Positions 30,859 to 60,970 of a DNA stretch of 64,000 nt are shown here, in pieces; position 1 is the first letter of the stretch; each line of letters opens with the position of its first letter. The DNA is taken from positions 160,001-224,000 of the forward strand of contig CAXXGJ010000025.1 in NCBI GenBank assembly GCA_963677895.2, written 5' to 3'. A program made the translations under genes and the position numbers. The notes below the pieces were generated by a model. It was not told the DNA's origin. It made no database searches and saw only the letters and a program-made list of their open reading frames with translations. The stretch comes from Treponemataceae bacterium (lineage in GTDB: Bacteria > Spirochaetota > Spirochaetia > Treponematales > Rectinemataceae).

Positions 30859-31112
30859 GACAGCACCTCCTGCAGCATGTGCTTGTCCAAGCTGAGCTCG
30901 GCAACCATCTGCTTCAAGCGCTTGTTTTCATCTTCGAGCTGCCGCAAACGTTTCAGTTCACTGGGCAGCAGCCCTGCGTACTTCTTCTTCCACCGGTAGA
31001 AGGTCTGTTCGCTGATCTCCATCTTCCGGATGATATCAGCGACGGGGGTGTCGGTTTCCGCTTGCTTCAGGGCAAAGGCAATTTGCTCATCGGTGAAGCT
31101 CGATTTCTTCAT
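30846..31112 (-). CDS. IS3 OrfA
   Basis: [37 protein letters not shown]. Confidence 0.92.
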
Positions 31113-31219
31113 TGGACCGCTCCTTCCTGTAGTATCGCATTAAAATGCGATTACTGACATTATGAGTGTCCAGTTTTCGGGTGGCAGATCAGAATATCCT
31201 AGGAAAAGGAGTGTCCACC

Positions 31220-35364: not shown

Positions 35365-36411
35365 TCAGCCGCAGATTTGGGCTATCCACGCGAAGATTTC
35401 TTCTTTGTCATAGTCGCCACTGCGACGGATGTGCCAGTATCGAGCGATCGTCGCGTCTACGCCTACCATGGAGCAGTAGTCGTCAATTCCGCCCAGCTGT
35501 CGTCCATAGGCCATATCGACATCTTCGAGGCCGCTGATCGGGCAATGGCAGCAGGCGGCGAAGACATCGTCCCGCGCGTCCGCCGCCCCGAGAGACTTCA
35601 GGTAAGGCTCATAGTCCTTGCTGTTGCCCGTGACTCCGAGAATGGCTGAGATAACGCCGCCGATACTCGTGCCGTTGGATATGATTTTCTCGGCGTCGCC
35701 CGGCATGACTGCGTCATTGTAGCGCAAGTAGCGAACGGCGGCCTTGAGATCGACGATACAGGCTAAAATGTCGTCCGCGCAGAGACCGTCGTTTTGGATG
35801 ATCCCCCTACAACCAGGCGAGGCGACGATGTAACCTTTGGCCAGGGCGACGGAAATAGCGTTGGGACCAGGACCGAGACCGCAGAAACCACCGGGGACTG
35901 CGGGCGACGCCCCTGAGACAACGTCTACCGGCGAAATTGTCGTGCTCGCAAAATCGCTGGCGACGAGGCCGACGGATATACCAGATGACGGATTGGCCAC
36001 GAGGTCGCTAGGTTCGGTGGGCATGTACCCCCCCATGGCGTTGGTGAAAAAGATCGGCGCGCTGTCGACCGAATAGCCTCCGATCATCCTTCCTTCGTAA
36101 TAGTCTTCAGGTACGAAAAAGTCCATGCTTTCATCCCTGGAGCTGACAGGATCGGATACGTAGACGATTCCTTCGAAAGCGCGATATCTGATCGTCTGAT
36201 CGTCCACCGTCGTAGTCTTGATGGAATAGGGCTGCTGATCGAAGACGAGGCTGTGCGCTGCTTTGTCAGAAGCCTTCCACGATGAGGAGAGCTCCGGTGA
36301 AGCGGTCGCATCTTGAACCAACGCGGAAAAAGCCGCGATCATCAACGCCGCCAAAAGAAATCGTTCACCCACAAAAGAACGCTTATCCATGTCGTACACC
36401 TTCATGGCCAA
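35365..36411 (-). CDS. Subtype B tannase-like alpha/beta hydrolase with in-frame internal deletions (probably inactive)
   Basis: APIFFTNAMGGYMP, IVDLKAAVRYLR, GTSIGG, CPI..DMAY, C-terminal WHIRRSGDYD..FAWI. Confidence 0.7.
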   Translation of the reverse strand: MAMKVYDMDKRSFVGERFLLAALMIAAFSALVQDATASPELSSSWKASDKAAHSLVFDQQPYSIKTTTVDDQTIRYRAFEGIVYVSDPVSSRDESMDFFVPEDYYEGRMIGGYSVDSAPIFFTNAMGGYMPTEPSDLVANPSSGISVGLVASDFASTTISPVDVVSGASPAVPGGFCGLGPGPNAISVALAKGYIVASPGCRGIIQNDGLCADDILACIVDLKAAVRYLRYNDAVMPGDAEKIISNGTSIGGVISAILGVTGNSKDYEPYLKSLGAADARDDVFAACCHCPISGLEDVDMAYGRQLGGIDDYCSMVGVDATIARYWHIRRSGDYDKEEIFAWIAQICG

Positions 36412-39165: not shown

Positions 39166-39261
39166 TTGAAGTGTAACCATCACTGCCTTGAAACGGTATA
39201 TAAAAGGGTGGTGCATAGCTCTTGAGAATTCCGGCCGCCGCCTGCGCCTGGAAAGGAGCAT

Positions 39262-39432
39262 ATGATGAAGTGTCGTCAAGCGCGATGCGGAGTTGCTTCA
39301 ATCAGAGGGATAATCGGATTAACTGCAATCATTCTTGTTTCAGTTTCGGCTGTGAGCTGCGATTGGCTATCCGGCTCCAAGGCCGCGGCATATGTCGCGG
39401 GATACTACGGCAATGGCAAATCCACAAGCTGA
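39262..39432 (+). pseudogene. Truncated lipoprotein (56 aa)
   Basis: AAAGGAG RBS; MMKCRQ..IILVSVSAVSCDWL..AYVAGYYGNG*; runs into the ferredoxin remnant. Confidence 0.5.
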
Positions 39433-40470
39433 AGAACGGATACAGCCAGCTCGCGGAGCGGATCAACCTTATGCCGCAGGGAGCGCCTCTTGGAGAACTC
39501 TTGTACAAGATATTATCCATCCTGTTTTCTGAGAAGGAGGCCGATCGAGGCGCGCGGTATGATGCTGGACATCGAAAATCCCGAGGGTGCACAGATATTC
39601 AGCATGCTGCCGCCCATAGCGAGTTTCTTCGAATTTTCCATGATGCGGGTGGACAACGGCTACGACCAGAAACCTCTCGCCGAGCTTTACTACCGCTATC
39701 TCAACTTCGAGGAAGACTTCATAAAAAACCTGTTCGCGGGCGGGAAAACCCAGTTAAGCAGGGTCTTCGTCAACGAGCCTTCGTTCTCCGAGGAGAACTG
39801 CTTTCACGTTTTGGACTACGAGCGCGCGAGCGAAGTGATCCGGACAGCGACGCATGTGGGAATCGGCACCTGCTACTGCCGCCACAAGATGAGCCATCTG
39901 TATCGCGCGTGCGACGCCCCGATGGACATCTGTATGACCTTCAATGGTGTCGCGCAATCCCTCATCGCGCGCGGCGTTGGCGAACGCGAAGGCCTGGACC
40001 TCCTCGATAAAGCTATAGCGCACAACCTTGTCCAGTTCGGCGAGAATGTCCGCGAATCGGTGTCGTTCATCTGCAATTGCTGCGGATGCTGCGGGGTGCG
40101 ACGCTTACGCGCAGATCTGCCCCGTGGAACCGGTGGGCATGGTGAGCGCCGGAGATCCCCATGACAGCCGCAGGGAAAAGGCTCACGTCGATACATCGAT
40201 CTGCCTCGGCTGCGGAGTGTGCGCGCACGCTTGTCCCCAAAAGTCATTTCGCTTACGTCGCGGGAAAAGCGCGTGATCACGCCGGTCAATTCCGCCCACC
40301 GGACAGTTCACATGGCCATCGAGAGCGGGAAGCTCCAGAATCTCGTGTTCGACAACCAGGTCTTGGAGTCGCACCGCGCCATGGCGGCTGTTCTCGGCGT
40401 CATCCTGAAACTGCCTCCCACCAAGCAGATCATGGCCAGCCGGCAGATGAAATCGCGGTACCTCCTGATT
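39422..40470 (+). pseudogene. 4Fe-4S dicluster protein pseudogene (frameshifts and deletions)
   Basis: PQGAP..LYKIL, FFEFSMMR, CYCRHK..CDAP..C, ICNCCGCC, CLGCGVCAHACP, MAIESGKLQNL, spread over several frames. Confidence 0.82.
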
Positions 40471-40546
40471 AATGCCCTCGTGTTATATATTTCGTTTTTA
40501 TCAAAATACATTGATAATAATTTGACCAAGCAAAATGCTGCGCCAG

Positions 40547-40582
40547 AAAAAAATAAAAACAACCGATAGTTGCAAGCGGTTG
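40547..40582 (-). terminator. Terminator of the hydrolase operon
   Basis: CAACCG..CGGTTG followed by TTTTTATTTTTTT on the minus strand. Confidence 0.6.
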
Positions 40583-40640
40583 CGCGGGGATCCGCTGTGT
40601 TTCTCTATAGCCTCTCCTGACGAGTGGGTACGTCATATGG

Positions 40641-42092
40641 TTATCCTATCGATGGTGACTCGCGAGCGAATTTTGTCAGATAGTACAAAAACGCTGTACA
40701 GGACTTTTCGTTCTCCCGTAGTCCCTTGAGCGTAAAGAACTCGTTCGGCGCGTGGATCATACCGCTGATCCCAAGCCCGTAATCGACGAAGGGGATCGAA
40801 ATGGGCGGGTCGGTAAAAACGTAAGACGGACCCGTGCCCGGAAAAATCGGCCAAACCGTCGTTTCCGGATAACCGGAATCGTGCATAGCCGCGATGCAGG
40901 CTCGGGCGGCCACGCTGTCCTCCTTTACCTTCGACCAGGGCGTCCCTTGTCGCTTTTTCAGCTCGATATCCTGAAACCCATGCGCATCAAGATGCTCCCT
41001 GATCCGCTTGATCATCGCCTCTGCTGTCATATTTGGAACGAGACGAATATCGAGCTTTGCCTGCGCTTTATACGGAAGCACTGTCTTCGTGGCAGGGCCC
41101 GTATAACCCGCCCATATGCCATCGATATTCAGCGAAGGCGTCCAAAGCCAGGCCCTAAGCGCGTCCGCCCCCGAAAGTTTCTTCATGAAGCGCGTTGCGC
41201 CCAGCCGATCTCTCAGATACATCTTGTCGTCGAAAACCGCTGCCAGTTCCTGCGTCAGCTGGTTATCGGTTTCATCGGGTTCGACGACTTCGTCGAAAAA
41301 GCCTTCGATCAGGATCTTGTCGTTCTCGTCGCGCATCGTGCCCAAAGCCCGCACCAGTCGCCAGACCGGGCTGGAAAGCCAGGTCGCGTTCATGCTATGC
41401 ACATCCGCCCTGCACGGTCCGCCCCAATCCCCTCCTCTGGCTTCCAATTCCAGATAAAGCATGCCCTTGTTCCCCAGCGTGGTAAACGGCCTGCCCTTCT
41501 CGTCCTGTCGCGCGGCATTCAGAAAAACCCCGACACATTTCGACAGTTCCTCGGCATGCGCTTTTGTGAAGGGAACCATGCTTTCGCTGCCCATCTCCTC
41601 TTCGCCTTCGACGACAAAAAGGATATTCAAAGGGAAGGCCCCGAGGGTTTTTTTGATGGACTCCACGGCATTGAGGAAACAAACCAGCGGACCTTTGGAA
41701 TTGGCGATGCCCCTTGCCACGACACAAGAGCCGTGTGGTTCCACGTCCATGATTGCTCCGGCGAAGGGCTCCACCTTCCACTCATTCAGCGGTTCGGGCG
41801 GCTGTACGTCGTACATCCCGTACATTACCAGCGTCGGCGCATCGGGGATATCGGCCGGCAGCCTGCCGACTACTATCGGGCTATGGATGTATCTTTCAAG
41901 ATGGATATCGACACAGCCGACAGCGCTCAGGAGGTCTTCAACTTTCCGGGCGCATGCTTCTATTCCTTCCCCCGTCCCGGCGATGCTGGGCTGGCGCACC
42001 AGATCCAGGATCCGCGGCAGATGCTCGCTATCGAAATGTTCGTCGATATATGCATATACAGGCGTTGTCCAATTATCTTTCATGGTTATCAC
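40641..42092 (-). CDS. M20 family metallohydrolase (dipeptidase-like), atypical metal ligands
   Basis: YGMYDVQP, ARGIANSKG, EGEEEMGS, KTVLP, IHAPNE. Confidence 0.9.
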   Translation of the reverse strand: MITMKDNWTTPVYAYIDEHFDSEHLPRILDLVRQPSIAGTGEGIEACARKVEDLLSAVGCVDIHLERYIHSPIVVGRLPADIPDAPTLVMYGMYDVQPPEPLNEWKVEPFAGAIMDVEPHGSCVVARGIANSKGPLVCFLNAVESIKKTLGAFPLNILFVVEGEEEMGSESMVPFTKAHAEELSKCVGVFLNAARQDEKGRPFTTLGNKGMLYLELEARGGDWGGPCRADVHSMNATWLSSPVWRLVRALGTMRDENDKILIEGFFDEVVEPDETDNQLTQELAAVFDDKMYLRDRLGATRFMKKLSGADALRAWLWTPSLNIDGIWAGYTGPATKTVLPYKAQAKLDIRLVPNMTAEAMIKRIREHLDAHGFQDIELKKRQGTPWSKVKEDSVAARACIAAMHDSGYPETTVWPIFPGTGPSYVFTDPPISIPFVDYGLGISGMIHAPNEFFTLKGLRENEKSCTAFLYYLTKFARESPSIG

Positions 42093-42104
42093 TATGACTC
42101 CCGA

Positions 42105-42869
42105 TTATTTCAGCTTCAGCAAAGTCTTGATGTTGTCGCAGAAAAGCTTCTGTTTCCTCTCGGCGCTGACGTCCATCGAGAGGAGGGGATCAAGATTCTC
42201 CTTGAATCGCCCGAGGCGTAGCGGGTTGGCATCAGTCCCGAAAAGGATTCTGTCGTCTTTCCGCATCCATTCGTAGGAAGCGGCAGCCAATTGCGGGAAA
42301 AGTCTGACATAATCGGAAAATGTGCCCGTCGTATCCATATAGACATTCTCATGTTTCGACACGATACAGAGATCGTCGCTCAGAGGATTAGCGTGCGCGA
42401 TGATGAATTTCGCCTCGGGATACCGGATGGCCAGATCGTCGATCGGCGCCGAGCTGCTGTAGGCTAACCGGGCTGTCCGCGAGTAGATCGGACCCGTATG
42501 GATCAAGATCGGCAAGTCCATATCGATGCATGTCTCGATCACTTCCCCAACCCGCGGATCTTCCATCGAAAAATTCTGTAGCGGCGGATGCAGTTTCAGC
42601 CCCCTCAGTCCGTACGTCTCGATTGCCTGACGCAGCTCCTTCGAAGCATTGGGCTCGGTTGGGACGACACAGGCGTACCCCATCAATCGGTCCGGATAAT
42701 CATGAACCAACTTCCCCACAAAGGCATTGTCCGAATATCCCAAGCTCTCCGAACCGGGAACAATGGGGTGAACGATCGCGATGTCGATGTTCAGCGCGTC
42801 CATCGCATTCAAAAAATCCTTGACGTTTCCGCGGCCTTCGCGAATATGGGTATGCGTATCGATAATCAT
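42105..42869 (-). CDS. Amidohydrolase_2 family protein
   Basis: IIDTHTH, GLKLHP, LIHTG, IAH, LFGTD. Confidence 0.88.
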   Translation of the reverse strand: MIIDTHTHIREGRGNVKDFLNAMDALNIDIAIVHPIVPGSESLGYSDNAFVGKLVHDYPDRLMGYACVVPTEPNASKELRQAIETYGLRGLKLHPPLQNFSMEDPRVGEVIETCIDMDLPILIHTGPIYSRTARLAYSSSAPIDDLAIRYPEAKFIIAHANPLSDDLCIVSKHENVYMDTTGTFSDYVRLFPQLAAASYEWMRKDDRILFGTDANPLRLGRFKENLDPLLSMDVSAERKQKLFCDNIKTLLKLK

Positions 42870-42899
42870 TGTATACTCCTTTCTCCTTAGAAATCGAAA

Positions 42900-44360
42900 C
42901 TATTTGGTCGTGTTTACGTGGTGCGCGCGCGCTTCTTCCATCAGTTGAATGAGATAGTACAGAAATGCGCTGCAGGACTTCTCGTTTTCTACCATCCCCT
43001 TGATCGTCATCCATTCGTCCGGCGCGTGGATTCGTCCGGACTGCCCTAAGCCGTAGGAAGCAAAAGGCAGATTGATCGGCGGGTTGGTGAATAGATAGGC
43101 CGGCCCGGTTCCGGGAAATATCGGCCAAGGCGAACCGTCCGGGTACCCGGAATGGTCCATAGCAGCTATAGCGGCGCGAGCTGGCACACTTTCCGGATCC
43201 ATCTTCGACCATGGTGTTTTCTGCCGGATAGTCATCTGAATGTCTTCGAATCCATGTTCATCCAGATGCTTTCTGATGCACTTCGCGACATGAGCCGCGG
43301 TCATGGGCGGGACCAGCCGCACATCGATCTTGCAGTTCGCCTTATAAGGGAGAATCGTCTTCGTCGCGGGTCCAGTGTAGCCGGCCCATATGCCATCGAT
43401 GTTCAGCGTGGGTTGCCACAGCAGTTGTCTGAGCGCATTCCCTCCAGTGAGCCTATGAATGAACTTTTTTGCAAAAAGTCTTTTGTTCAAGTACATCGGT
43501 TCATCGAAGACATCGATCATGCGCTGGGTCAGCTTTTCATCGCCCTTTCCTAAGGGCCGTAGTTCGTCAAAAAAATTATCTATGAGAATATTGTCTTCTT
43601 TGTCCTTCATCGTCGCGAGCGCGTTGACGAGCCGCCAGACTGGGCTGGACACCCAGGCCGCGTTCATTCCGTGGAGATCGACTTCAGTGGGGCCGCCCCA
43701 GGCGCCACCGCTCGCCTCCAGTTCGAAGAACAAAATACCTTTGTTGCCATTGATCGTGAACGGCCGGCCCTGCTCGTCCTGGCGGGTGCCGTTCAAAAAG
43801 ACCGTATCAAATTGGGAAAGTTCGGCCGCATGCTTTTGCACGTACTGCGCCAGGCTTTCGCTCCCCAGTTCCTCCTCACCCTCGACAATAAACCGGATGG
43901 AGACCGGATCATAACCCAGCACTCGCCGGATAGAGTCCACCGCATTGATGAAGCAGATCAGCGGGCCTTTCGAATTCGCGACGCCTCGGGCCACCATGCA
44001 TTCGCCGTAGGGAGCTAGGTCCTTGATGACTCCTTCGAAGGGGGGGACGGTCCACGCTTCGATCGGGTCGGGCGGCTGTACGTCGTACATCCCGTACATC
44101 AACACCTTGGGCGCGTCTGGCAGAGGCGAGATCAGGTCGCCGATGACGACGGGGCTGTGGACGAACCTTTCCAGATGGATATTGACGCATCCGAGCCGTC
44201 CCAAAATGTCCATGACTTTGGTCGCGCACTCTTCGATGCCTTCGCCCGTGCCCGCGATGCTCGGCTGCCGTACAAGCTCTTTGACGAGAGGCAGGTGGGT
44301 CTCACGAAAATTTTTGTCGATGTGGCGGTAGGTCTCTTGGAGCCAATTTTCCGATTCCAT
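42900..44360 (-). CDS. M20 family metallohydrolase, paralogue of 40641-42092
   Basis: YGMYDVQP, ARGVANSKG, EGEEELGS, IHAPDE; long shared peptides such as LVRQPSIAGTGEGIE and LNIDGIWAGYTGPATKT. Confidence 0.9.
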   Translation of the reverse strand: MESENWLQETYRHIDKNFRETHLPLVKELVRQPSIAGTGEGIEECATKVMDILGRLGCVNIHLERFVHSPVVIGDLISPLPDAPKVLMYGMYDVQPPDPIEAWTVPPFEGVIKDLAPYGECMVARGVANSKGPLICFINAVDSIRRVLGYDPVSIRFIVEGEEELGSESLAQYVQKHAAELSQFDTVFLNGTRQDEQGRPFTINGNKGILFFELEASGGAWGGPTEVDLHGMNAAWVSSPVWRLVNALATMKDKEDNILIDNFFDELRPLGKGDEKLTQRMIDVFDEPMYLNKRLFAKKFIHRLTGGNALRQLLWQPTLNIDGIWAGYTGPATKTILPYKANCKIDVRLVPPMTAAHVAKCIRKHLDEHGFEDIQMTIRQKTPWSKMDPESVPARAAIAAMDHSGYPDGSPWPIFPGTGPAYLFTNPPINLPFASYGLGQSGRIHAPDEWMTIKGMVENEKSCSAFLYYLIQLMEEARAHHVNTTK

Positions 44361-44387
44361 AGTGATATATCCTCCTGCAGGTGATAT

Positions 44388-46385
44388 TTATTGTTTCAAG
44401 TGGGAATTGAACCAGTCCGTGATGAGCTTCAACCGATTGATGCGATTCCGGGGTTTCCCGGCCCGGCTCAACTCATGTCCCTCATTTTTGAAAATACAAA
44501 GCCGCGATTCGATGCCATGATATTTCAACGCGTAGAACATCTGAATGCCTTCTGAAACCGGGCAACGGTAGTCATTCTCCGAATGAAGAAAGAGCGTCGG
44601 AGTCTTGCAACAATCCGCGTATTTGAGGGGAGAATGCTCCCAGTAACGGTCTATATCCATCCATAGATCGGTGTCGAATTGCCAGAGCGGGAACTGGTAG
44701 CTGGTGTCCGATGTGCCGAACATAGAAATAAAACTGGCGATTCCTCTTTGCGAGACGGCGCACTTGAAGCGATCCGTATGGCCGATGATCCAGTTGGTTA
44801 TGTACCCGCCGTAACTTCCTCCGCCGACACCCAGTCGATGGGAGTCAAGTCCAGGGTACTTTTCCAAACAGACATCCGTGAATTTCATGATGTCCGAATA
44901 ATCATCGACCCCATATTTCCCAATGATGTTCGCGAAGACGTTATCTCGGCCGTCGCTGCCTCGAGGATTACAGTAGAAAACGTAGTAGCCTTGGTTCGCC
45001 CACACTTGCATCTCGTGGTAAAACACCGAACCGAAGGTGAGCTTATGGCCCCCATGGATATAAAGGATTCCTGGATAGGATTCGCCCGGCCGCCAATCGA
45101 CAGGCTTGATGAGGAAACCCTGCAAGCGTATTCCGTCGTTGGAAAAATCGACGAACTCGTGCCGGCTCAGGGTAATCTCGGATTGCACCCAATCGTTGAA
45201 ATCGGTCAACTTTTTTTCGACACCATCCTTTAGCGAATATAATTCCGGCAGTCTGTCGTGCTGCATCCCGACGAAAATAATTTCATTCCCGCACAACGCG
45301 ATGGAGTCGATCGACCCGCCTTCCCCGGTAAGCGTTTCAAAGCGTCCTTTCGCGTCTACACGTTTAAGATATGCATCGCCGCCTTCCGTGCCAACGTAGT
45401 ATACGAAATCCTGATCGGCGGCGACCGTATCCCCGCTTCCATACCTCGAATCGGTCCCGACAGAGTTCGACGCGCTCAATTCATTCCTGGCGAAGAGAAT
45501 TACTTTGGAAGTTATCTCATCAATCCAGTAAAAATACGAATTCTCCTGATAGCCATAGCGCAGCCCGTCCGATCCCAAGAAGAAAGGTTTCGTCCCCTGG
45601 AAGCCGCAGGAATGAACCCGATAGCGCATATCGTCAACGTACTCCCGGTTAAGACCAGTATCCGCATCGTATATCGCTATGTTGCTGAGGAAGATATATG
45701 GCTTATCTTTCGTGAATCGCTTTGCGCTGTAGATGATCCGGGAGCCTTCGGCTCTTACGAATTCGACCTGCTGCTCCGGACCTGAAACCGGCCAAAGCTT
45801 CTGCGTCGTCCGGTCGAATACATAGAGCCTGCTCCGTCGACCGCTCGTGATGCCTCGCCCATCTTTTCTAAATGGCATCTCGTCAGCCACAATATAACTG
45901 ACGTCCCGCTCTGCCCTTGCTTTTAAAGCCTTTTCCCGTTCTTCACCATCGTGATCCATAGGATCATCTTCATAGAGGTTAAAATCAGCCAGAAGCGCGA
46001 ACCGGTCACAGCCAAGCGGGCGTAGCCACGTAACGATCCGGGGAATTCGCATGTATTCCTGAGCTTCCCCGCCCGCAAACGACAGAGCATAGAAAACACT
46101 CCAGGACTCTCCCGCCTCGATCTTTTTTGCCAGTTCCTCATTTCGCATGGTCTGGAAAAGGAGAGTAGTATTGTCCAGCCAGAGGACGTTTTTCTCCGCG
46201 CCACCGGTTGTATAGCGGCTCGTGCGGCGTGTTTGCCTGTCGAACACATAAACAGACGAGTCGTAGCAGTTTTTCTTCTCGTTGCACTGGCTTACGATAA
46301 AAGCGCACTTTTTCTTGTCCGGAGACGCCACGAGGGCGGACAGATATTTGTAGTTAAGAAGATCTTCAATGGTAAGTCGCCTCAT
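44388..46385 (-). CDS. S9 family serine peptidase (S9C acylaminoacyl-peptidase-like)
   Basis: Beta-propeller N-terminus, IHGG, NPRGS, GGSYGG, ENDYRCP, NEGHELSR. Confidence 0.92.
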   Translation of the reverse strand: MRRLTIEDLLNYKYLSALVASPDKKKCAFIVSQCNEKKNCYDSSVYVFDRQTRRTSRYTTGGAEKNVLWLDNTTLLFQTMRNEELAKKIEAGESWSVFYALSFAGGEAQEYMRIPRIVTWLRPLGCDRFALLADFNLYEDDPMDHDGEEREKALKARAERDVSYIVADEMPFRKDGRGITSGRRSRLYVFDRTTQKLWPVSGPEQQVEFVRAEGSRIIYSAKRFTKDKPYIFLSNIAIYDADTGLNREYVDDMRYRVHSCGFQGTKPFFLGSDGLRYGYQENSYFYWIDEITSKVILFARNELSASNSVGTDSRYGSGDTVAADQDFVYYVGTEGGDAYLKRVDAKGRFETLTGEGGSIDSIALCGNEIIFVGMQHDRLPELYSLKDGVEKKLTDFNDWVQSEITLSRHEFVDFSNDGIRLQGFLIKPVDWRPGESYPGILYIHGGHKLTFGSVFYHEMQVWANQGYYVFYCNPRGSDGRDNVFANIIGKYGVDDYSDIMKFTDVCLEKYPGLDSHRLGVGGGSYGGYITNWIIGHTDRFKCAVSQRGIASFISMFGTSDTSYQFPLWQFDTDLWMDIDRYWEHSPLKYADCCKTPTLFLHSENDYRCPVSEGIQMFYALKYHGIESRLCIFKNEGHELSRAGKPRNRINRLKLITDWFNSHLKQ

Positions 46386-47425
46386 ATCGTTACGCTTTCC
46401 TTGAGGTCAAAGCTTTTAGCCCGTCCTGGGTCACACAAATGACAGGCCGCGAAATGTCCCGGCCCCAGCTCTCTCAGCTGTGGCTCCTGAGTAAAACAAA
46501 GTGGATTGGAATAGACACATCGCGTATTGAATCGGCAACCGGCCGGCGGATTCCGGGGGCTTGGCAGATCGCCTTTTAATATAATCCTTTCCCTCTTGAT
46601 CGAAGGATCTGGGATTGGAATCGCGGAAAGAAGGGCCTGAGTATAGGGATGGCAGGGTGAAGTGAATAGATCCTCAGAAGCGGCCATTTCGACGACCTTT
46701 CCCAGATACATGACACAGACGCGATCCGATACGTAGCGGATGACATTCAGGGCGTGGGAAATAAATACATAGGTCAGCCCGAAACGATCCTGGAGATGCT
46801 TCAATAAGTTGAGTATCTGCGACTGGATGGATACATCCAGCGCCGAAACGGGCTCATCACAGAAGATTAGCTTAGGCCGCACTATGATGGAGCGCGCGAT
46901 GCTAATTCTCTGCCGCTGTCCTCCCGAGAACTCGTGGGGATAACGTTCATAGTACGAAGACTCCAGGCCCACGACTTCCAAGGTTTCAAGGACTTTTTGC
47001 TTCCGTTCGGCCGCCTCCTTCATCCCATGCACCAATAGCGGCTCTCCGACAATCTCTCCGATCGACATTCGAGGATCCAGCGAAGAATATGGATCCTGAA
47101 ATATGATCTGCATCTGGCTGCGCGACTTGCGCAAGTCCTCCTCCGTCAAGCCAAAGAGATCGACGCCATCGTAGATGGCGCTGCCGCTCGTCGCGTGCAC
47201 AATTTGCATTATTGTCTGCGCTAGCGTGCTTTTTCCGCATCCGGATTCGCCCACTAAACCTAAGGTCTCCCCCTCGTAGACATTGAATGAAACCCCATCC
47301 ACCGCGTGGATGGAACCTTGCTGCTTCGAGAAAAGCCCGCCGTAAACGGGGAAATACGTCTTGAGGTCACGAACTTGCAGCAGCAGCCTAGCGGTAGCCG
47401 GACGGACAGCGCTCGGGAGTGTCAT
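46382..47425 (-). CDS. Peptide ABC ATP-binding protein (OppF/DppF-like)
   Basis: GESGCGKST, FSGGQRQR, DEPVSALDVS. Confidence 0.92.
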   Translation of the reverse strand: MTLPSAVRPATARLLLQVRDLKTYFPVYGGLFSKQQGSIHAVDGVSFNVYEGETLGLVGESGCGKSTLAQTIMQIVHATSGSAIYDGVDLFGLTEEDLRKSRSQMQIIFQDPYSSLDPRMSIGEIVGEPLLVHGMKEAAERKQKVLETLEVVGLESSYYERYPHEFSGGQRQRISIARSIIVRPKLIFCDEPVSALDVSIQSQILNLLKHLQDRFGLTYVFISHALNVIRYVSDRVCVMYLGKVVEMAASEDLFTSPCHPYTQALLSAIPIPDPSIKRERIILKGDLPSPRNPPAGCRFNTRCVYSNPLCFTQEPQLRELGPGHFAACHLCDPGRAKSFDLKESVTI

Positions 47426-48414
47426 ACGTTGTTGCCTTTCCCTGAACTCGCATTTGAGACTAAATGGCAGGCCACTTTATGCGTTCCCAAGGTTACCAGA
47501 TCCGGAATCCTCACCCTGCAAATATCCATGCACTGAGGGCAGCGAGGGTGAAAGCGACAGCCCTTCGGAAAATCGGCCGGATTGGGAACCTGGCCGCGGA
47601 TCACCGCCAACTCCGGTTTCCGCTTATCCACACGGGGGATACACTCCAAAAGGCCGCGCGTGTATGGGTGCAGGGGGTTAGTATATATATCCTTTGGCAA
47701 ACCTTCCTCGACGATTTTGCCCGAGTACATAACGAGGATCCGCTGGGCGATTTCAGCGACAACGCCCAGATCGTGCGTGATAAAAAGAACGGTCATACCG
47801 CGCTCTTTTTTTAGCGTGGAGATCAGGTCGAGTATTTGGGCTTGGATAGTGACGTCCAGGGCTGTTGTGGGCTCATCCGCGATCAGCAATTTCGGATTGC
47901 AGGAAATCGCCATGGCGATCATGACCCTCTGGCGCATGCCCCCGGAAAACTGATGGGGATACGCGTTGGCGCAGCGTTCCGGATCCGGGACCCCCACCAT
48001 TTTCAGCGATTCAATAGCTCGTTTACGGGCCTCGGACTTGCTCAGGCCCTCATGCGTCGAGAACACTTCTCCTATCTGCTCCCCGATCCGGTGCACGGGA
48101 TTCAGCGCTGTCATAGGCTCCTGGAAAATCATCGAGATATCCTTGCCTCGGATTTGCCCTATGTCATGGGCGCTTTTAGCCAAAAGGTCCTCTCCCCCAA
48201 ACCAGATTTCCCCCTCGACATATTTCCCCGGCGGGGAGGCTACCAACCGCATGATCGAAAGAGACGTGACGCTTTTTCCACAACCCGACTCGCCGACAAT
48301 GCACAGCGTTTCGCCCTTAAAAACATCGAAGCTCACGCCATCCACCGCAGTGATGACTTTATCCGAGAGATAGAAGGCTGTTTTCAGGCCCTTGACTTCC
48401 AGTAGTTTTTCCAT
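47422..48414 (-). CDS. Peptide ABC ATP-binding protein (OppD/DppD-like)
   Basis: GESGCGKSVT, FSGGMRQR, DEPTTALD; start MEKLL. Confidence 0.92.
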   Translation of the reverse strand: MEKLLEVKGLKTAFYLSDKVITAVDGVSFDVFKGETLCIVGESGCGKSVTSLSIMRLVASPPGKYVEGEIWFGGEDLLAKSAHDIGQIRGKDISMIFQEPMTALNPVHRIGEQIGEVFSTHEGLSKSEARKRAIESLKMVGVPDPERCANAYPHQFSGGMRQRVMIAMAISCNPKLLIADEPTTALDVTIQAQILDLISTLKKERGMTVLFITHDLGVVAEIAQRILVMYSGKIVEEGLPKDIYTNPLHPYTRGLLECIPRVDKRKPELAVIRGQVPNPADFPKGCRFHPRCPQCMDICRVRIPDLVTLGTHKVACHLVSNASSGKGNNV

Positions 48415-48445
48415 GCGTCCCAGTCCCTTGTCGAAAAGCTGACGA

Positions 48446-48477
48446 CTCGCCACCGCCGCCGACGCGGCGGCAGCGAG
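48446..48477. other. GC hairpin after the substrate-binding protein gene (probable mRNA stabiliser)
   Basis: CTCGC-CA-CCGCCGC-CGAC-GCGGCGG-CA-GCGAG, no U-tract. Confidence 0.55.
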
Positions 48478-48493
48478 GAGACGACTTCCCAGC

Positions 48494-50068
48494 CTATCTA
48501 ACCGCTTTGACTTTCATTTCAGCAGCCAGGATGTACTGGGTCTGCGCTGTCGACCAGTCGAGCCGCGCCGTAGTCGCATAAATCGAACCTAGCTGGAACA
48601 GATAGATAAACGGCGGGTCTTCGACCAGCTTCTTCTGCAATTCCTTGAGTAGTGGAGCCTTATCCGCCAGCTTTATGGTGGCAACTATTTTGTCGACGAG
48701 CCCGTCGTACCCCGGAATAAGGTTGTACGAACTCATACCGTTGGACCGAACGATACCGGTAAGCCATGTGTCGAGCAGCATCGGTTTTGAAGCCCAGTTC
48801 CAATCGAAGATACCGGAAATCTGCTTTTTGTTTTGACCGTTGATGACCATGCTTCGCGCGGCGCTGTCTTCGAGCGTCCTGACCGTGCAATCGATACCGA
48901 CGGCCTTCAGATAGGAAGCGACCGCCTGTGAAACCTCGATAGCCTTAGCGTGATTGCCATCGTTCGTCTGAAGCTCGATTTTGAAGCCATTTTTCAACCC
49001 AGCTTCCTCAAGCAAGGCCTTCGCCTTCGCGGGATTATATGGCAGCATTTTGATGGTCGCATCATAGGATGGAAAGTCAGTCCGGTACCAAGAAGCCAAA
49101 ACCTTGCCGTTGCCACCCATAACCTTGTCGAGGATAGTCTGTCGATCGACCGCGTAATTCATAGCCTGCCTGACCCTTACATCCTTCAGCTGCGAGTTTG
49201 GCGACCAATCCACCGTGTTGAACGCGATGTATTCGACACGCCTTGTCATCTTGCTTTCGATATTGATGTTGCCCTGAGCTTTGAGCATATTGGTAAACTC
49301 GCTATTGACATCGTAGATAATATCCACGTTGCCATTGACCAGCTCAGCAACGCGCGTGGCGGCCTCGGGGATCGCTTTGATTATATAGATGTCGACAAAG
49401 GGCTTCCCCCCCCAATAGTTCGGATTCCTTTCCAAGGTGATCTGCTGATCGTGTTTCCAGGACTTAAATACGTAAGGCCCGGTGCCTACGTAGCCTCCGG
49501 CCCCGATCGCTTGCTCGCCGACTTTTTTGGCGTTACCCGGCGCGATGATCGGCAGATCGCACAAATGATTCGGCATCATCGGATTTTCTGATGTAGTCGT
49601 GATTCGAATAGTATAGTCGTCGATGGCTTCCCAGGATCCAGCTCTATAGTAGGTTTTGAAAGCATACCCTTGCCTAGGGAACTCGGTCGACATAGCCCGG
49701 TCCAGGTTGAAACCTACCGCTTCGGCATTGAACGGCTCGCCATTCGAAAACTTGATCCCGCGATGGAGATAGAAGATCCATTCGTTATCTGATTTTTGCT
49801 CCCATTTATCTGCCAGATACGGGATCAGCTTGTCGTTGGCATCGTACGTAGTCAGCGTCTCGGCGATATTTCTGAAGACGTTCGCGCCATAATCCGCAGA
49901 CGCCCGATGAGGGTCCAGTGTCGCGGGATCGACCGGCTGAGCCAGAACAACTGTTACCGGCTTAGGTGCCGCAGCCAATTTCTGTGGCATCCCCACAGCC
50001 AGGATAGTTACGGCGTACATGGTTATCGCAATCGCAGGCGATAACATTTTCCATGTCTTGCTTTTCAT
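48494..50068 (-). CDS. Family 5 ABC substrate-binding protein
   Basis: Signal peptide, TLDPH, KFSNGEPFNAEAV, GTGPY, DVRVRQAMNYAVDR. Confidence 0.92.
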   Translation of the reverse strand: MKSKTWKMLSPAIAITMYAVTILAVGMPQKLAAAPKPVTVVLAQPVDPATLDPHRASADYGANVFRNIAETLTTYDANDKLIPYLADKWEQKSDNEWIFYLHRGIKFSNGEPFNAEAVGFNLDRAMSTEFPRQGYAFKTYYRAGSWEAIDDYTIRITTTSENPMMPNHLCDLPIIAPGNAKKVGEQAIGAGGYVGTGPYVFKSWKHDQQITLERNPNYWGGKPFVDIYIIKAIPEAATRVAELVNGNVDIIYDVNSEFTNMLKAQGNINIESKMTRRVEYIAFNTVDWSPNSQLKDVRVRQAMNYAVDRQTILDKVMGGNGKVLASWYRTDFPSYDATIKMLPYNPAKAKALLEEAGLKNGFKIELQTNDGNHAKAIEVSQAVASYLKAVGIDCTVRTLEDSAARSMVINGQNKKQISGIFDWNWASKPMLLDTWLTGIVRSNGMSSYNLIPGYDGLVDKIVATIKLADKAPLLKELQKKLVEDPPFIYLFQLGSIYATTARLDWSTAQTQYILAAEMKVKAVR

Positions 50069-50117
50069 TGCTCACCTCCTCTTTACATAAGCGTTTACAA
50101 CGCTAACCAGCCATTAA

Positions 50118-50997
50118 TCATATAGAGCCGTTACTTTGTCTGACGGCCCCCCGCAGTCTTGGATCGCGTATATCTCTCAGCCAGTCTCCGACAAAATTGA
50201 TGGATAGGCAGACGAAAAAAATCGCCAAGCCAGGAATCGTCGTCAGCCACCATGATGTAAAAATGTACTGTCGGCCCGTGGCGATCATATTGCCCCACGT
50301 CGGAATGGAAGGGGGAACGCCGAGGCCGAGGAAGGTCAAGGACGCTTCTGCCAGAATGGACGTGCCCATTTCCATAGTGGCAAGAATAATGGCCGAATCG
50401 ATGACGTTCGGCATGATGTGTTTGAGAACCACCCGCAGCTTGGTACAGCCGATGGTGTGCGAAGACTTGACGAATTCCCGCTCCTTTATGGAAAGGACCT
50501 GGGCGTGGATCATTCGGGTATAGGGAACCCAGCCCGTGATACCGAGCACGATGATTACGTTCATGAGGCTCGAGCCGAGGACGGCCATGAGGGTCAAGGC
50601 CAGAAAAAATAAACGGAAAGGACAACATCACGTCTACCATCCGCATGATGACAGTCTCTATCCATCCCCCAACGAAACCCGCCAATAATCCCAGGACGGT
50701 ACCGATAACCGATCCCACGAGGACTGCCGTAAAGCCAACAACGATTGAGACCCTCGCGCCATGCAGCAAACGGCTCAGCACATCCCGGCCCATTTCATCG
50801 GTGCCAAAAACATGCTTCAGAGAACCCCCGTTTTCCCATGAGGGAGGGATAAGCCTCTGAAGGATGTCCACTTGATCCGGTTTGCAGGGAGCGAGCAAAG
50901 GTGCGAAAAGTGCGCAGATGATCCAGAGAATGATGACGACAACACCGAACTTGGCAGTCCTCGTGCTGTTCCTGAACAACTCCGCGAATCTCTTCAC
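50118..50997 (-). pseudogene. DppC-like permease split by one extra T in a homopolymer (real frameshift or read error)
   Basis: 5' frame FGTDEMGRD..SFPFIF; 3' frame LALTLMAVLG..GDWLRD; T6 at 50604-50609, where T5 would restore the frame. Confidence 0.88.
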
Positions 50998-51008
50998 TGT
51001 TTCTCCTT

Positions 51009-51926
51009 CTAGTTATATCGAATCCTTGGATCGATGAGTATGTAGCATATGTCCGCCAGCAAATTGACCACCACAAACAGCAGGGCCATGCACAGGGCGC
51101 AAGCCTGTACGAGAGGAAAATCGTAATTCAGGATCGCGCTGACCATCAGACGACCGACGCCCGGCCAGGCGAAGACAGATTCAGTCACGACCGAGCCGCT
51201 AAGCATTTGCCCAATCTGGAGGGCTATCATGGTCACCACTGACAACAGCGCGTTCCGGAGCCCGTGGTGAATAATCACCCGGTTCTCCACCACACCCTTT
51301 GCCCGCGCAGTGGTCATGTAATCCTGTCTCATCACCTCAAGCATGGACGAGCGAGTCAAACGCGCCGTACTGGCTGCCATGCCGGCCGCCAAGGTGATCG
51401 CCGGCATAATCAGTTGCCTGAATGTGCCATAGCCCGACGGAGGCAGCCACTTGAAGACGACCGAAAAAAGCAGAATAAAAATCAGACCCAACCAGAACGT
51501 CGGCAGCGACCGGCCCGCGATCGTCACCGTCGTCACCACGTTATCGAGCAATGTGTTTCTTTTAATAGCGGACAGAATCCCCGCCCCGATCGCCAGAGGC
51601 ACCGCGATCAGCATGGCGACGCCGCTTAAAAGCAGCGTCGCCGGGAAATGCTCTTTGATGATGTCGAAGACGGGACGCGAATAGTAGAACGATTCGCCGA
51701 AGTCACCCTTTAAAATGCCAGTAATGTATATCGAGTATTGCTTGAGCAAAGGCTGGTCCAACCCAAGGATAGCCCGCATTTTGCTGAGGTCGTCAAAAGT
51801 CGCTTCCGGACTGATCAGAAGCTTTGCCGGATCACCGATGGCGCGGAGAATCACGAAGACAAGCGTTACCACAATGAATAGAACGAGAATAGTTTGCAGC
51901 AACCTACTAATCAGATACCTGACCAT
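51009..51926 (-). CDS. DppB-like permease
   Basis: GDPA, TRSSMLEV.RQDYMTTARAKG, ESVFAWPGVG, DPRIRY. Confidence 0.92.
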   Translation of the reverse strand: MVRYLISRLLQTILVLFIVVTLVFVILRAIGDPAKLLISPEATFDDLSKMRAILGLDQPLLKQYSIYITGILKGDFGESFYYSRPVFDIIKEHFPATLLLSGVAMLIAVPLAIGAGILSAIKRNTLLDNVVTTVTIAGRSLPTFWLGLIFILLFSVVFKWLPPSGYGTFRQLIMPAITLAAGMAASTARLTRSSMLEVMRQDYMTTARAKGVVENRVIIHHGLRNALLSVVTMIALQIGQMLSGSVVTESVFAWPGVGRLMVSAILNYDFPLVQACALCMALLFVVVNLLADICYILIDPRIRYN

Positions 51927-51984
51927 GCTCGACTAGCCCTTTCCTCAAGATTTAGACAGAATTGAAATTCCCTTCAGCCGGTCC

Positions 51985-52995
51985 CTAATTGTCCTTTCGA
52001 ATCGCATTTGCCCGGTTTCCCAGGATATATGCATAATCCCCCGGGTGAACCTTCGTCATAAGACCCCGCATATCTAGGAAGACCGTTTCCTCGCAGGGGG
52101 CGTGAATTTGCTCGATGACTTCCAAGGACAGAGGATTTCGGATCGTAGCCAACAAAGTCCCTTTTGGTACAATACGATTCAGGTATTCAGGACCGCACTC
52201 GGGGTAGAACATGCCGCCGTTCCTCGGCCTCAGCAGTGGTCTCTCTCTGAGCAACCACTGTGTTTTCGGCAGCTCCGGCTCACCGGGATACATCCCCATA
52301 TGCTTCATCGCATTGAAGACACCCCGAACGCTTCCGCCGACAATGTCGATTTTGAGTTCCATTCCGGCACCTACTTCAGCCACGATGGCTGGTTTACCCA
52401 GGCTTATCATGTAATCCGTGAGGGTGCCTGCGTAGGCTGCGGCCGGTCCGGCCGGTGCACCGCTATAGAGGTATTCCAAGCCATACGCGTAGCCCATATC
52501 GATCACTTTCTTCCCAATCTCGCCATCAGGGTTTTTCATCAACAAATAATTGATCGCTGTACCATATCCGCCGCCGTGCCAGTCGATGAGCGCATCTGCA
52601 TCATTGCAGAAAACGGACACAGCGGCGGCCATCTGATCCGTAAACCAGCCTTTGGGGCTGCCCGGAAAGGAGCGGTTCATATTGGCCATATCTATGGGGG
52701 TATTTCTGGAATCCCACTCAAAGCCAACCGGATTCTGGCAGGGCAGGGCAACGATGGTTCCTTTCAGCTTTTTCGGATCGGTCTTTTCAAGCACTTGCCG
52801 AATAGCCTCAAGACCGGTGATGGCATCTCCATGGCTCAACGCCGTGAGCATGAGCCGCGGCCCTTCCTGAGCGCCGTTAAGGATGTGAACCGGCAACACC
52901 ATTTCTAAGCCGCTTGCCATGGTTGTGACCGGGACAAACTTAAAAACACGTTCGCCTGAGTTAGCCTTAATTCCACGGATAGTAACAGCTGACAT
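51985..52995 (-). CDS. Succinylglutamate desuccinylase/aspartoacylase (M14) family protein, atypical
   Basis: GAQEGPRLMLTALSHGDA, NMNRSFPG, IDWHGG, AEVG, C-terminal biotinyl-lipoyl-like domain. Confidence 0.85.
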   Translation of the reverse strand: MSAVTIRGIKANSGERVFKFVPVTTMASGLEMVLPVHILNGAQEGPRLMLTALSHGDAITGLEAIRQVLEKTDPKKLKGTIVALPCQNPVGFEWDSRNTPIDMANMNRSFPGSPKGWFTDQMAAAVSVFCNDADALIDWHGGGYGTAINYLLMKNPDGEIGKKVIDMGYAYGLEYLYSGAPAGPAAAYAGTLTDYMISLGKPAIVAEVGAGMELKIDIVGGSVRGVFNAMKHMGMYPGEPELPKTQWLLRERPLLRPRNGGMFYPECGPEYLNRIVPKGTLLATIRNPLSLEVIEQIHAPCEETVFLDMRGLMTKVHPGDYAYILGNRANAIRKDN

Positions 52996-53060
52996 CGTTA
53001 TTCTCTCCTTGCCAAATGACTATTAGAAAAAACAATGAAGTGATCGGCAATATTGAGCAC

Positions 53061-53088
53061 AGTGTATCACCCGGAATTCCCCTGTCAA
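53061..53088 (-). promoter_or_regulatory. Promoter of the hydrolase/ABC operon
   Basis: TTGACA-16 nt-TACACT with TGn extension, in a very AT-rich divergent spacer. Confidence 0.55.
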
Positions 53089-53356
53089 GTGCATTATTGA
53101 TAAATATTATAATTAATACTACGTATGTTTTTTAAAAGACACACTATATATTTTATATGTAATAATTTATTAATAAAATACCCCTGTCTACAAATTGAAA
53201 AATATAAACACATCATTGGATATTCTTATAAAATGACAAAAACAAACTTTTTCTGTAAAAAATAGAGACAGACTCATAAAATTATATTATAATATGATAA
53301 GACTGATTGATTGTCGCAATGGATTCGAAAACATCTCATATGGGCGGAAAGGCGTC

Positions 53357-54298
53357 ATGAACTTCAAAGTCCTAAAATATGTGGTCACCGTAGCCGAGGA
53401 AAAAAGCTTCACCCGCGCAGCGAAGCGCCTAGCAATCTCCCAACCCTCATTGAGCCAGAACATTCAGGGGCTTGAGGTGGCTTTGGGAGTATCCTTATTC
53501 GATCGGAAATGCATGCCTTTGACCTTGACATATGCCGGCAAACTTTACGTCGAATGGGCAAAGCAGATATTGCTCTCGGAATCGCAGGTCGAACGCCGCA
53601 TCTCGACGATCTCGAAAGATCAATCACTCCGTCTCGTAGTCGGCATCGCGCCCCACAGAAGCCCTTTGATGCTTCCCAAGATTATCGGGAATCTCGCCGC
53701 GGAGTTTCCGGATTGTTCGATTGTTATTGAAGATGGCCTGATCGAAGAAGCGCTTTACGAAAAAGTGTACAATCATGAAATCGATTTACTGGTCGGCGAT
53801 ACGCAGCCAGATACGATCCGGTTTAAGAACATACCTGTGACCGAAGAAAGAATCCTTCTGGCCGTTCCATCGAGCTATAAAATCAATGGCTTTGATACCA
53901 TAAATGAAAAGGACAGTAATCCTCGAATCCATCTGGACCAACTGCGGGACTGGCCATTCATCACACTAGGGATAAAAACCTACTTGGGAGCAGCTCTGCG
54001 CAGGCTGTGCGAACAGGAGGAGTTCCTGCCGATCAACAAGATCGAATGCAACAGCGTTGCCACCGCCCATCTGCTCGTAAGCAGGGGAATTGGAATTACC
54101 ATCATCCCCGAACTGTTTATCCGGCTCAGCCCCCCCCTGCTCAACATCGACTATTTCATCATAGAGAGGAGCGACCCGCATCGGACTATGTCCATCATCT
54201 ATCGCAACGGAGATGATCTGATGAATCCGGCAAAGAGATTTATCGAGCTGTTCATGGAAATGTACCATAAAAAGAGCCCTGAGAGACCAATCTCCTAA
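53357..54298 (+). CDS. LysR family regulator
   Basis: VAEEKSFTRAAKRLAISQPSLSQ..LE..LFDR; start MNFKV. Confidence 0.92.
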   Translation: MNFKVLKYVVTVAEEKSFTRAAKRLAISQPSLSQNIQGLEVALGVSLFDRKCMPLTLTYAGKLYVEWAKQILLSESQVERRISTISKDQSLRLVVGIAPHRSPLMLPKIIGNLAAEFPDCSIVIEDGLIEEALYEKVYNHEIDLLVGDTQPDTIRFKNIPVTEERILLAVPSSYKINGFDTINEKDSNPRIHLDQLRDWPFITLGIKTYLGAALRRLCEQEEFLPINKIECNSVATAHLLVSRGIGITIIPELFIRLSPPLLNIDYFIIERSDPHRTMSIIYRNGDDLMNPAKRFIELFMEMYHKKSPERPIS

Positions 54299-60670: not shown

Positions 60671-60970
60671 CTATCGCTCCCCGACGAAAGCGTCCGCTTC
60701 ATACTGGAAAACCTTTATGCCCTCCTTAGGAAAGGCTTTCTTGACTTCGCTCACAGCCTCATCGATCAGGAAAGCTTCATGTTTGTTTCCAAAGAGGATA
60801 TAGAGGATGTTCAACTCCGGCCAAATCGCGGTGCCATGGCGAACGCCGCTCCTTCCCCTTCCTTTCACATCCTCGACGAGGGAATAGCTGAAACCCGGAA
60901 TCCGCTTTTCTATCTCCTCGAAGATATCTTCCTCCACGGATCTGTTCGCGTAGATTTCAGTTCGTATCAT
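60671..60970 (-). CDS. PII-like transporter-associated protein (PG0541 family)
   Basis: VKGRGRSG.RHGTAIWPELN; overlaps the RND stop. Confidence 0.75.
   Translation of the reverse strand: MIRTEIYANRSVEEDIFEEIEKRIPGFSYSLVEDVKGRGRSGVRHGTAIWPELNILYILFGNKHEAFLIDEAVSEVKKAFPKEGIKVFQYEADAFVGER

Follow-up and report, generated by a model that had tools for sequence, protein, structure and literature searches.

The locus described here raises the question of which nutrient an importer linked to a set of hydrolases might serve when several of its proteins have lost the residues that usually hold a metal or the amino end of a peptide. It lies in a 64,000-nucleotide stretch of a Treponemataceae contig (hereafter the window).

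Organization, integrity and conservation of the locus

The families, order and strands that a preliminary description had given for a co-directional importer and hydrolase run divergent from a LysR gene were confirmed by Pfam. The - strand genes run in the order M14/AstE_AspA, dppB, dppC, SBP_bac_5, dppD, dppF, S9, M20, Amidohydro_2 and M20, with the LysR gene on the + strand across an AT-rich gap of 300-360 bp from the M14-led run:

53357..54298, + strand, divergent LysR-type regulator (Pfam HTH_1 and LysR_substrate)
52996..53356, no strand, divergent AT-rich control region in which both strands have sigma-70-like sites (consensus matches only)
51985..52995, - strand, M14/AstE-AspA-family hydrolase of the HGDA type (Pfam PF24827, motif, fold)
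51009..51926, - strand, DppB-type permease (family profile match)
50118..50997, - strand, DppC-type permease, split at ~50604 in the window (profile match, read-derived contigs)
48494..50068, - strand, family-5 substrate-binding protein, SBP (profile match, alignment)
47422..48453, - strand, DppD-type ATPase (family profile match)
46382..47425, - strand, DppF-type ATPase (family profile match)
44388..46385, - strand, S9C serine peptidase with a canonical triad (Pfam, match to S9Cfn, 7EP9)
42900..44360, - strand, M20a, with a remodelled metal site (motif, alignment, model)
42105..42869, - strand, amidohydrolase_2 TIM-barrel enzyme with canonical metal residues (Pfam, alignment)
40641..42092, - strand, M20b, paralogous to M20a, its metal site remodelled in the same way (alignment)
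40540..40584, - strand, possible terminator, a weak hairpin with a U-run (folding; see below)

The longest LysR reading frame begins at 53294, and the HTH starts close to the start at 53357. The dppC frame is broken in the window, a point overlooked in the preliminary description. Contigs from runs X1, X2 and X3 (at most two samples from two studies, with the source sample possibly among them) have one base fewer at this site at full depth, and are otherwise identical to the window across 40641-54298. Since the read-derived contigs differ at this site only, dppC is intact and the unusual metal codons are no sequencing error. The frameshift is an assembly error rather than the mark of a pseudogene, and the same contigs, together with subfamily-wide conservation, show that the odd ligands arose neither by sequencing error nor by local decay.

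Claims of low GC, a promoter and a terminator survive in reduced form. The GC content of the cluster is indeed below that of the genome (0.524 versus 0.560), but the deviation is modest and weak as an argument: 11-14% of equal-sized windows have lower GC, 8% exceed its tetranucleotide distance, and the dip reaches past the cluster limits. A sigma-70-like site, TTGACA-16-TG.TACACT at 53088-53061, faces the operon as a consensus match, in a region with 21 such sites against 12.9±3.5 in shuffles. The putative terminator hairpin has 7 bp and a folding z-score of only -0.70, and a terminator scan called none on the - strand downstream of M20b. A search for island borders and repeats recovered no informative repeat, the chief direct repeats being the M20 and ATPase paralogues. 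The host genome encodes Omp85 and appears to be that of a diderm; Spo0A_C was not found in it (93% complete).

The cluster is real, and rare yet well conserved. The arrangement, whose conservation the preliminary description had left to gene-neighborhood comparison, recurs across genomes: M20, S9, amidohydrolase_2 and SBP genes adjoin the M14 gene in 8 of 12 genome loci (Clostridia; flanks cut at 10 kb), and a LysR orthologue of at least 39% identity is present in 9 of the 12 (L001-L012), these counts not being independent as related loci share ancestry. Two named strains with whole-genome records, Emergencia timonensis SN18 and Paratissierella segnis BX21, carry it, and the same gene set, with interchangeable peptidases, occurs in Deinococcota and Actinomycetota. 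Searches of 60 relatives of the host genome, and of 398 further genomes sampled from the class of Emergencia, did not find it. Accessory genes of the related loci encode further amide hydrolases (M32, with an intact HExxH, M19 and amidase), and no recurring redox or lyase gene was seen among their neighbors.

Altered binding and metal sites

In the SBP the amine-binding Asp of DppA and OppA is replaced by K428, which aligns with DppA D408/OppA D419, pocket positions here being taken from alignments of ~25-30% identity. In DppA, D408 makes a salt bridge to the ligand's amino terminus (PMC3295651). This replacement is a new observation. A Lys occupies the position in 17 of 18 cluster SBPs, in 0 of 8 SBPs from distant loci and in 0 of 13 paralogues from the host genome; R132, R277 and R329 are kept in all 18 cluster SBPs and K375 in 17 of them. 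At least 13 further family-5 SBPs are encoded in the host genome, and only 1 of 13 has the Asp; absence of the Asp is common in family 5, with the Lys alone being specific. Around DppA R355 the alignment is poor and the Arg itself is not conserved, so that K428 could instead grip the C-terminal carboxylate if the ligand were bound the other way round.

Motif analysis confirmed the earlier observation that three of the five hydrolases (M14, M20a and M20b) have non-canonical metal ligands in full-length open frames. Both M20 proteins, which are 61% identical, possess the catalytic and dimerization domains of the family (PF01546 and PF07687; model, Foldseek) but score under every NCBIfam cut-off, and display YGMYD for YNHYD, NSK for DNK and N190/G191 for the acid ligand (E/D). 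The site of M20a comprises M91 (for His), D93, N129 (for the bridging Asp), E162, E163, R193, H230, R348 and H445. In the carnosinase CN2, metal 2 (H99, D132, D195) binds the nitrogen at bestatin's N-terminal end, and metal 1 (H445, D132, E167) its carbonyls (PMC6271292). The lost ligands are exactly the metal-2 set, whereas E163, H445, the catalytic E162, H230 and R348 are retained; of the five ligands that hold two metals in M20A enzymes only E163 and H445 remain, alongside the catalytic Glu and the C-terminal-binding Arg/His. All three metal-2 ligands are missing in 73 of 145 representative relatives and present in 50, and their loss is, by this alignment, a coordinated one. R193 lies two residues past the lost acid, where CN2 has the pocket residue Y197, and is found in the best 51 M20 matches but none of the 69 that follow; E162, R348 and H230 are invariant in 26 of 26 aligned rows. 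The emphasis that the preliminary description placed on the M20 remodelling holds for a subfamily-wide trait but was overstated, the His being missing in 89 of the 145 relatives: the remodelling is not special to the cluster, and the site-loss lineage is far broader, large and old. Loss of the metal site is also not required for capped substrates, because the two-metal enzymes ArgE, DapE and Acy1 cut N-acyl substrates (PMC11511702).

The M14 enzyme has the carboxypeptidase-A-like fold with a C-terminal beta domain (PF24827; Z 34). Its family is defined by a His-Glu-His zinc triad (PMC9974463), of which it has H55 and H140 with A58 for the Glu (HGDA for HGDE). All other catalytic residues are kept, including the catalytic E207 and the carboxylate-binding R97/N107/R108, with roles assigned by analogy with CphZ as described in the same source. 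In 59 of 82 M14 homologues a small residue stands in for the Zn-binding Glu (Ala here, and among the others also Gly, Ser, Cys or Asn), against 17 with Glu and 6 fragments, and the tree forces at least two changes of state. Because no replacement ligand is common to both Ala clades, only A52, G61, K231 and Y264 co-varying with the HGDA state, the enzyme may be weak or inactive. The change is not required for the pathway, since close relatives of the HGDE type occur in like clusters (L032, L013). The odd M14 and M20 sites are inherited subfamily traits and not decay.

The remaining hydrolases are canonical. The S9C peptidase has the GGSYGG motif and Ser-Asp-His triad, with no signal peptide seen, and the amidohydrolase_2 retains H6, H8, H124, H159 and D213 (HxH, His, His, Asp), 95-100% conserved in 88 rows. 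The ESM Atlas yielded generic family names only.

Candidate substrates and rival explanations

The parallel changes in the SBP and in two kinds of metal enzyme suggest a nutrient without the usual free amino end. We favor, with a probability of about 0.55, N-capped peptides, whose cap may be anionic, that are taken up, trimmed from the C-terminus and de-acylated. A LysR-controlled operon would scavenge short peptides or acyl-amino acids with a free C-terminal carboxylate and an N-terminus that bears a cap, probably an acidic one, in place of a free alpha-amine; the ABC importer would take them up, cytoplasmic enzymes acting at the C-terminus (here S9C, and M32 in some of the relatives) would shorten them, and a one-metal M20, the two-His M14 and the amidohydrolase_2 would then cleave the capped bonds that are left, so that amino acids and a simple cap are set free. 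This reading is favored because a Lys replaces the amine-binding Asp of the SBP, because the M20s lose exactly the ligands of the amine-binding metal 2 and would keep the carbonyl-binding metal 1, because the M14 keeps a CphZ-type carboxylate clamp and catalytic Glu, because the nearest relatives with solved structures hydrolyze acyl-amino acids or are carboxypeptidases (S9Cfn, Sso-CP2, DoeB, CphZ), and because the hydrolase/SBP gene set recurs with amide hydrolases as accessory genes. The earlier proposal of import and stepwise deblocking of an amide thereby gains in its N-blocked form a third, separate line of evidence, the binding protein, beside the conserved arrangement and the subfamily-wide sites. 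More tentatively, the locus might define a dedicated, undescribed pathway for anionic N-capped peptides (succinyl or another diacid, ureido, N-phosphoryl), in which the importer would read an anion at both ends, the M20s would use one metal and, instead of the second, an Arg, and the M14 would complete its zinc site with the substrate anion as third ligand, a device that would have evolved more than once.

It is unlikely, though worth weighing, that the substrate is instead a non-peptide or partly peptidic anionic conjugate (an opine or metallophore amide, a ureido- or phosphoramidate-linked compound, a natural product) that itself binds metal in the M20 and M14 sites with unusual chemistry. 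The five conserved basic residues of the SBP would suit such a ligand, as would its best curated matches, NikA/opine-type and glutathione-binding proteins, all far under cut-off; similarly, the actinobacterial HGDA loci have a PotD-like importer in place of Dpp, and AtzE/GatA-like amidases accompany distant loci. 5-nitroanthranilate aminohydrolase (5K8N), a one-metal M20 with changed ligands, offers a precedent, albeit from another subfamily and sharing the fold at match rank 42 and 12% identity. Against this, the true peptidase families that recur (S9C, M32 with HExxH, M19) fit a peptide chain, and no downstream catabolic genes recur. Nickel import was rejected as an assignment: the SBP scores 168 against 393 bits for NikA (NCBIfam), and of the NikA ligand residues, which we take to be R97, W100, R137, R386, W398, Y402 and H416, only W398 is matched, an Arg sitting one position off R97.

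An ordinary, broad peptide-scavenging operon, with the odd residues as tolerated variants and an unchanged substrate class, appears quite improbable. The many other family-5 SBPs of the host, the proximity of the S9C to a known general carboxypeptidase and the size and age of the site-loss M20 family would accord with it, but it leaves unexplained the charge reversal at the amine-binding position of the SBP, the fact that the metal site lost is precisely the amine-binding one, beside an invariant R193, and a gene set fixed across families in a rare cluster. A loss of catalysis in all three remodelled proteins, which would then be scaffolds, ligand-binding subunits or genes in decay and leave the chemistry to S9C and amidohydrolase_2, is very unlikely. 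In its favor, the M20s lack three of their five ligands and the M14 one of its three, with no compensating M14 ligand found; the distant M14 displayed from L014 has Gln for the catalytic Glu, and yeast Dug2p carries a non-catalytic M20A-like domain. Against it, the residues for catalysis and substrate binding vary little or not at all, the frames are full length, the proteins are modelled with confidence as native folds (pLDDT 95), and lineages ~45-70% identical retain the state.

If the N-capped reading is right, the locus shows how anaerobes can draw amino acids from blocked peptides, which are closed to ordinary Opp/Dpp systems and aminopeptidases. The locus also provides a testable handle on a large uncharacterized M20 branch that deleted one metal site and on the two-His M14 enzymes, both now under misleading generic annotations, and the substrate could be found through the two named strains.

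Relationship to known systems

A literature search reaching few subscription papers found no paper on the cluster or its motifs. Among characterized M14 enzymes, DoeB/EutE (6TWM), CphZ (8EIN) and 3CDX share with the cluster enzyme the fold (Z 34 to both 3CDX and 6TWM), two His, the catalytic Glu and the R/N-R carboxylate clamp; it differs in lacking the Zn-binding Glu, in its 22% identity and in having no ectoine or cyanophycin context. Its score against the DoeB model TIGR02994 is 79.7 versus 402.7 bits, and no ectoine genes occur among the annotated neighbors; the ectoine and cyanophycin assignments, under cut-offs or without gene context, were rejected. The M20 proteins share the fold, catalytic Glu, metal-1 ligands and C-terminal-binding Arg/His with the dipeptidases and carboxypeptidases Sso-CP2 (4MMO; Foldseek TM 0.80, 30% identity to the model), S. 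pneumoniae 2POK, CNDP1/CNDP2 and Dug1p, whereas the His→Met and bridging Asp→Asn changes, the loss of the third acid and the gain of Arg193 set them apart. The closest solved structure to the S9C is S9Cfn of Fusobacterium nucleatum (7EP9), a carboxypeptidase by the title of its reference, which matches over the full length (E 5e-179) with the same canonical triad; unlike it, the cluster enzyme is embedded in a dedicated import cluster. HbpA2, with an Arg at the amine-binding Asp position, is described in PMC3295651 as binding neither dipeptides nor glutathione. As a whole, the locus is reminiscent of the Dpp, Opp and Gsi operons (E. coli dpp, opp, iaaA-gsiABCD), which have the same five-part ABC architecture and in which hydrolase genes are likewise co-transcribed with the importer, iaaA overlapping gsiA; it differs from them in the Lys for the amine-binding Asp and in having five hydrolases of four families.

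Gene organization, assembly and composition

ORF listing and family scans recovered a single co-directional run on the - strand in the order M14, dppB, dppC, SBP, dppD, dppF, S9, M20a, amidohydrolase_2 (AH2) and M20b, with a LysR gene divergent from it, and thereby bear out the one-directional arrangement of the preliminary description.

51985-52995, - strand: M14 (AstE/AspA-family hydrolase), first gene of the run
48494-50068, - strand: SBP (family-5 substrate-binding protein)
Run ends at 40641, - strand: M20b, last gene of the run

M20a and M20b share 61% identity, and the genome encodes one further M20, a canonical YNHYD-type enzyme on a different contig. In the window dppC is interrupted near 50604, where contigs from 3/3 public runs (at most two samples, with the source possibly among them) lack one base while being otherwise identical across the cluster; dppC is therefore unbroken, and the odd codons are genuine. 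An AcrB-family gene adjoining two TolC-like genes (60957-63905, -) is likewise split over two ORFs, possibly by another such single-base assembly error.

The lower GC first noted for the cluster stands as 0.524 versus 0.560, but still lower values occur in 11-14% of windows of the same size and the dip extends beyond the cluster. The proposed promoter survives as a predicted, promoter-like site oriented toward the operon; the terminator is at most a possible one, the candidate hairpin 3' of the operon being weak and the terminator scan making no call there. Elsewhere in the window, a low-GC stretch at 29-33 kb holds two integrase-core (rve) ORFs (30010-32355), which we take to be IS3-like. Overlapping Cys-rich ORF fragments without a Pfam match directly downstream of M20b (39222-40289, +) look like a broken iron-sulfur protein gene, and a subtype-B tannase-like ORF (35365-36411, -) covers only profile positions 1-229 of 463, reflecting a truncated gene or an assembly frameshift.

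Remodelled sites in the hydrolases and the binding protein

Alignment of the cluster M20s to Sso-CP2 (4MMO), 2POK and CNDP1 revealed substitutions of a metal-binding His by M91, the bridging Asp by N129 and the third acid by N190/G191, with D93, E162, E163, H230, R348 and H445 retained; the AlphaFold model (pLDDT 95) has 4MMO as its best structural match. Met or Leu at the His together with Asn at the Asp occurs in 119 of the best 120 of 2220 M20 matches, the remaining one being a fragment. In a set of 145 rows made up of the window proteins and of representatives from clustering at 50%, all three ligands are absent in 73 and kept in 50, and these states are strongly clustered on the FastTree phylogeny (6 changes versus 44.7 when shuffled), the clade holding the cluster's own M20s having a support of 100. 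In CN2, metal 2 binds the nitrogen at the N-terminus of bestatin and metal 1 its carbonyls (PMC6271292; this and the other articles are cited from excerpts), and the ligands of Sapep are divided between the metals in the same way (PMC2937973). Because of this shared division, the lost site is by analogy the amine-binding one. Mapping by alignment count places R193 at the position of CN2 Y197, a pocket residue for bestatin (PMC12655758); R193 is present in 26/26 M20 rows from the window and loci and, within the best 120 of 2220 matches, in 51/51 of the closest and 0/69 of the next.

The M14 fold resembles DoeB and CphZ; in the latter, zinc is bound by an H-E-H triad, a Glu serves in catalysis and the carboxylate is held by an R/N-R clamp (PMC9974463). 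The window M14 retains H55, H140, E207, R97, N107 and R108, with Ala replacing the triad Glu. This position carries a small residue in 59 of 82 homologues, Glu in 17 and is absent in 6 (one match with 21% coverage being omitted). The unusual metal ligands originally read from both families are confirmed; they are widespread among homologues, and their codons are present in the run contigs. A tree of 76 M14 locus sequences, with two mislabelled rows that touch neither clade of interest, implies 4 state changes, of which branches with good support force at least 2, with Glu-type enzymes separating a clostridial from an actinobacterial clade; no replacement acidic, His or Cys ligand common to these two clades was found. 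Several kinds of remodelling occur within the family: of neighbouring Trueperaceae paralogues (L014:9965 and L014:5479), one has Gln for the catalytic Glu and the other an altered third-His motif.

The S9 enzyme has a canonical triad and a full-length match to 7EP9 (S9Cfn), called a tetrameric carboxypeptidase in the title of a reference in PMC13181208. AH2 has canonical metal residues; no close solved relative of it was found. Inspection by eye revealed no signal peptide at the N-termini of the cluster hydrolases.

In an alignment with E. coli DppA, OppA and GsiB, K428 of the SBP falls on DppA D408 and OppA D419. D408 forms a salt bridge to the amino terminus of the ligand, and an Arg at the equivalent position of HbpA2 is said to block dipeptide binding (both PMC3295651). 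With near-duplicates removed, Lys occupies this position in 17 of the 18 SBPs from the clusters, 0/8 distant-locus SBPs and 0/13 paralogues of the host genome, although Asp occurs in only 1/13 of these paralogues, which tempers the reading of K428. R132, R277, R329 and K375 are likewise conserved; the pocket is mapped by sequence alignment, which is gapped around DppA R355. The genome encodes no fewer than 13 other family-5 binding proteins, and the window a second Dpp-type importer (98-2992, -) in a stretch of 44-47% GC.

Conservation and distribution of the neighborhood

A neighborhood scan seeded with the M14 alignment recovered 28 genome and 39 metagenome loci. The 12 closest genome loci (M14 identity 61-68%), from Oscillospiraceae, Emergencia, Eubacterium, Christensenellaceae, Paratissierella and others, contain, with flanks cut at 10 kb, an SBP in 12, M20, S9 and AH2 in 10 each and M32 in 4. 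All four of the former occur together in 8/12, in keeping with the expected co-occurrence of M14, M20 and S9. Counting near-duplicates and short contigs, the 27 loci with a close M14 include SBP in 24, M20 in 19, S9 in 20 and AH2 in 21. Distant loci (Deinococcota, Actinomycetota, Chloroflexota) combine M14 with AH2, amidase, M19, M32 and GntR regulators, and in some cases a YCLYD-type M20 or a PotD-like importer.

Among 60 relatives of the host genome, neither a close M14 (best match at 34% identity, or 31% for one spanning near-full length) nor a close M20 turned up, and none was found in 398 other scored genomes from Emergencia's class; the cluster is rare. The host genome encodes Omp85 and Spo0A was not detected in it; gain of the cluster by transfer is therefore likely.

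Individual loci show further associations. A 40-kb Trueperaceae region (G065:C13:25000-65600; loci L079, L080 and L013) has five M14 homologues, several SBP-permease sets, two AH2, M19 dipeptidases, an amidase and a YCLYD-type M20. At a single locus (L029:373-6932), SIS, xylose-isomerase-like, PfkB and SBP_bac_8 genes lie upstream of the cluster, a set presumably resembling fructoselysine-type operons. Directly upstream of the cluster's LysR, L006:1179-8184 holds a separate Dpp system accompanied by a nitrilase resembling deaminated glutathione amidase and by an RraA-like aldolase (below cut-off). Canonical-Glu M14 relatives adjoin hydantoinase/oxoprolinase gene sets in Chloroflexota-type loci (L026, L027, L063), a context that would accord with lactam or pyroglutamyl caps in these lineages.

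Proposed function and relation to known systems

Judged from sequence, three unrelated folds (SBP, M20 and M14) are altered in the same direction: recognition of a free amino terminus is probably removed or charge-reversed, with the parts for holding a C-terminal carboxylate and for amide hydrolysis kept. By analogy, the partner enzymes would work from the C-terminus or strip acyl groups, and no redox or lyase gene recurs among the loci. The simplest reading, at a rough probability of 0.55, is that the importer would take up N-capped peptides, which would then be trimmed from the C-terminus before the cap is removed; that the cap is acidic is a tentative extension. The initial proposal of import and deblocking of a blocked amide gains from the parallel changes, but HGDE-type M14 relatives occur in similar clusters and two-metal M20 aminoacylases already cleave N-acyl substrates (PMC11511702; for the DapE ligands, PMC4012986), both of which count against N-capped peptides. 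A non-peptide anionic conjugate as substrate is an unlikely alternative in keeping with the conserved basic residues of the SBP. An ordinary peptide operon is somewhat less probable still given the shared alterations, and it is quite improbable that the remodelled enzymes, with their retained residues, are dead.

No published description of the cluster was found in searches of article listings that covered a minority of subscription papers, and its M20s and M14 fall outside the curated family cut-offs and the solved structures. As an architecture, the pairing of an importer with peptidases is already known. The M20s and M14 share the fold of canonical family members but fail the defining metal-ligand tests of those families.
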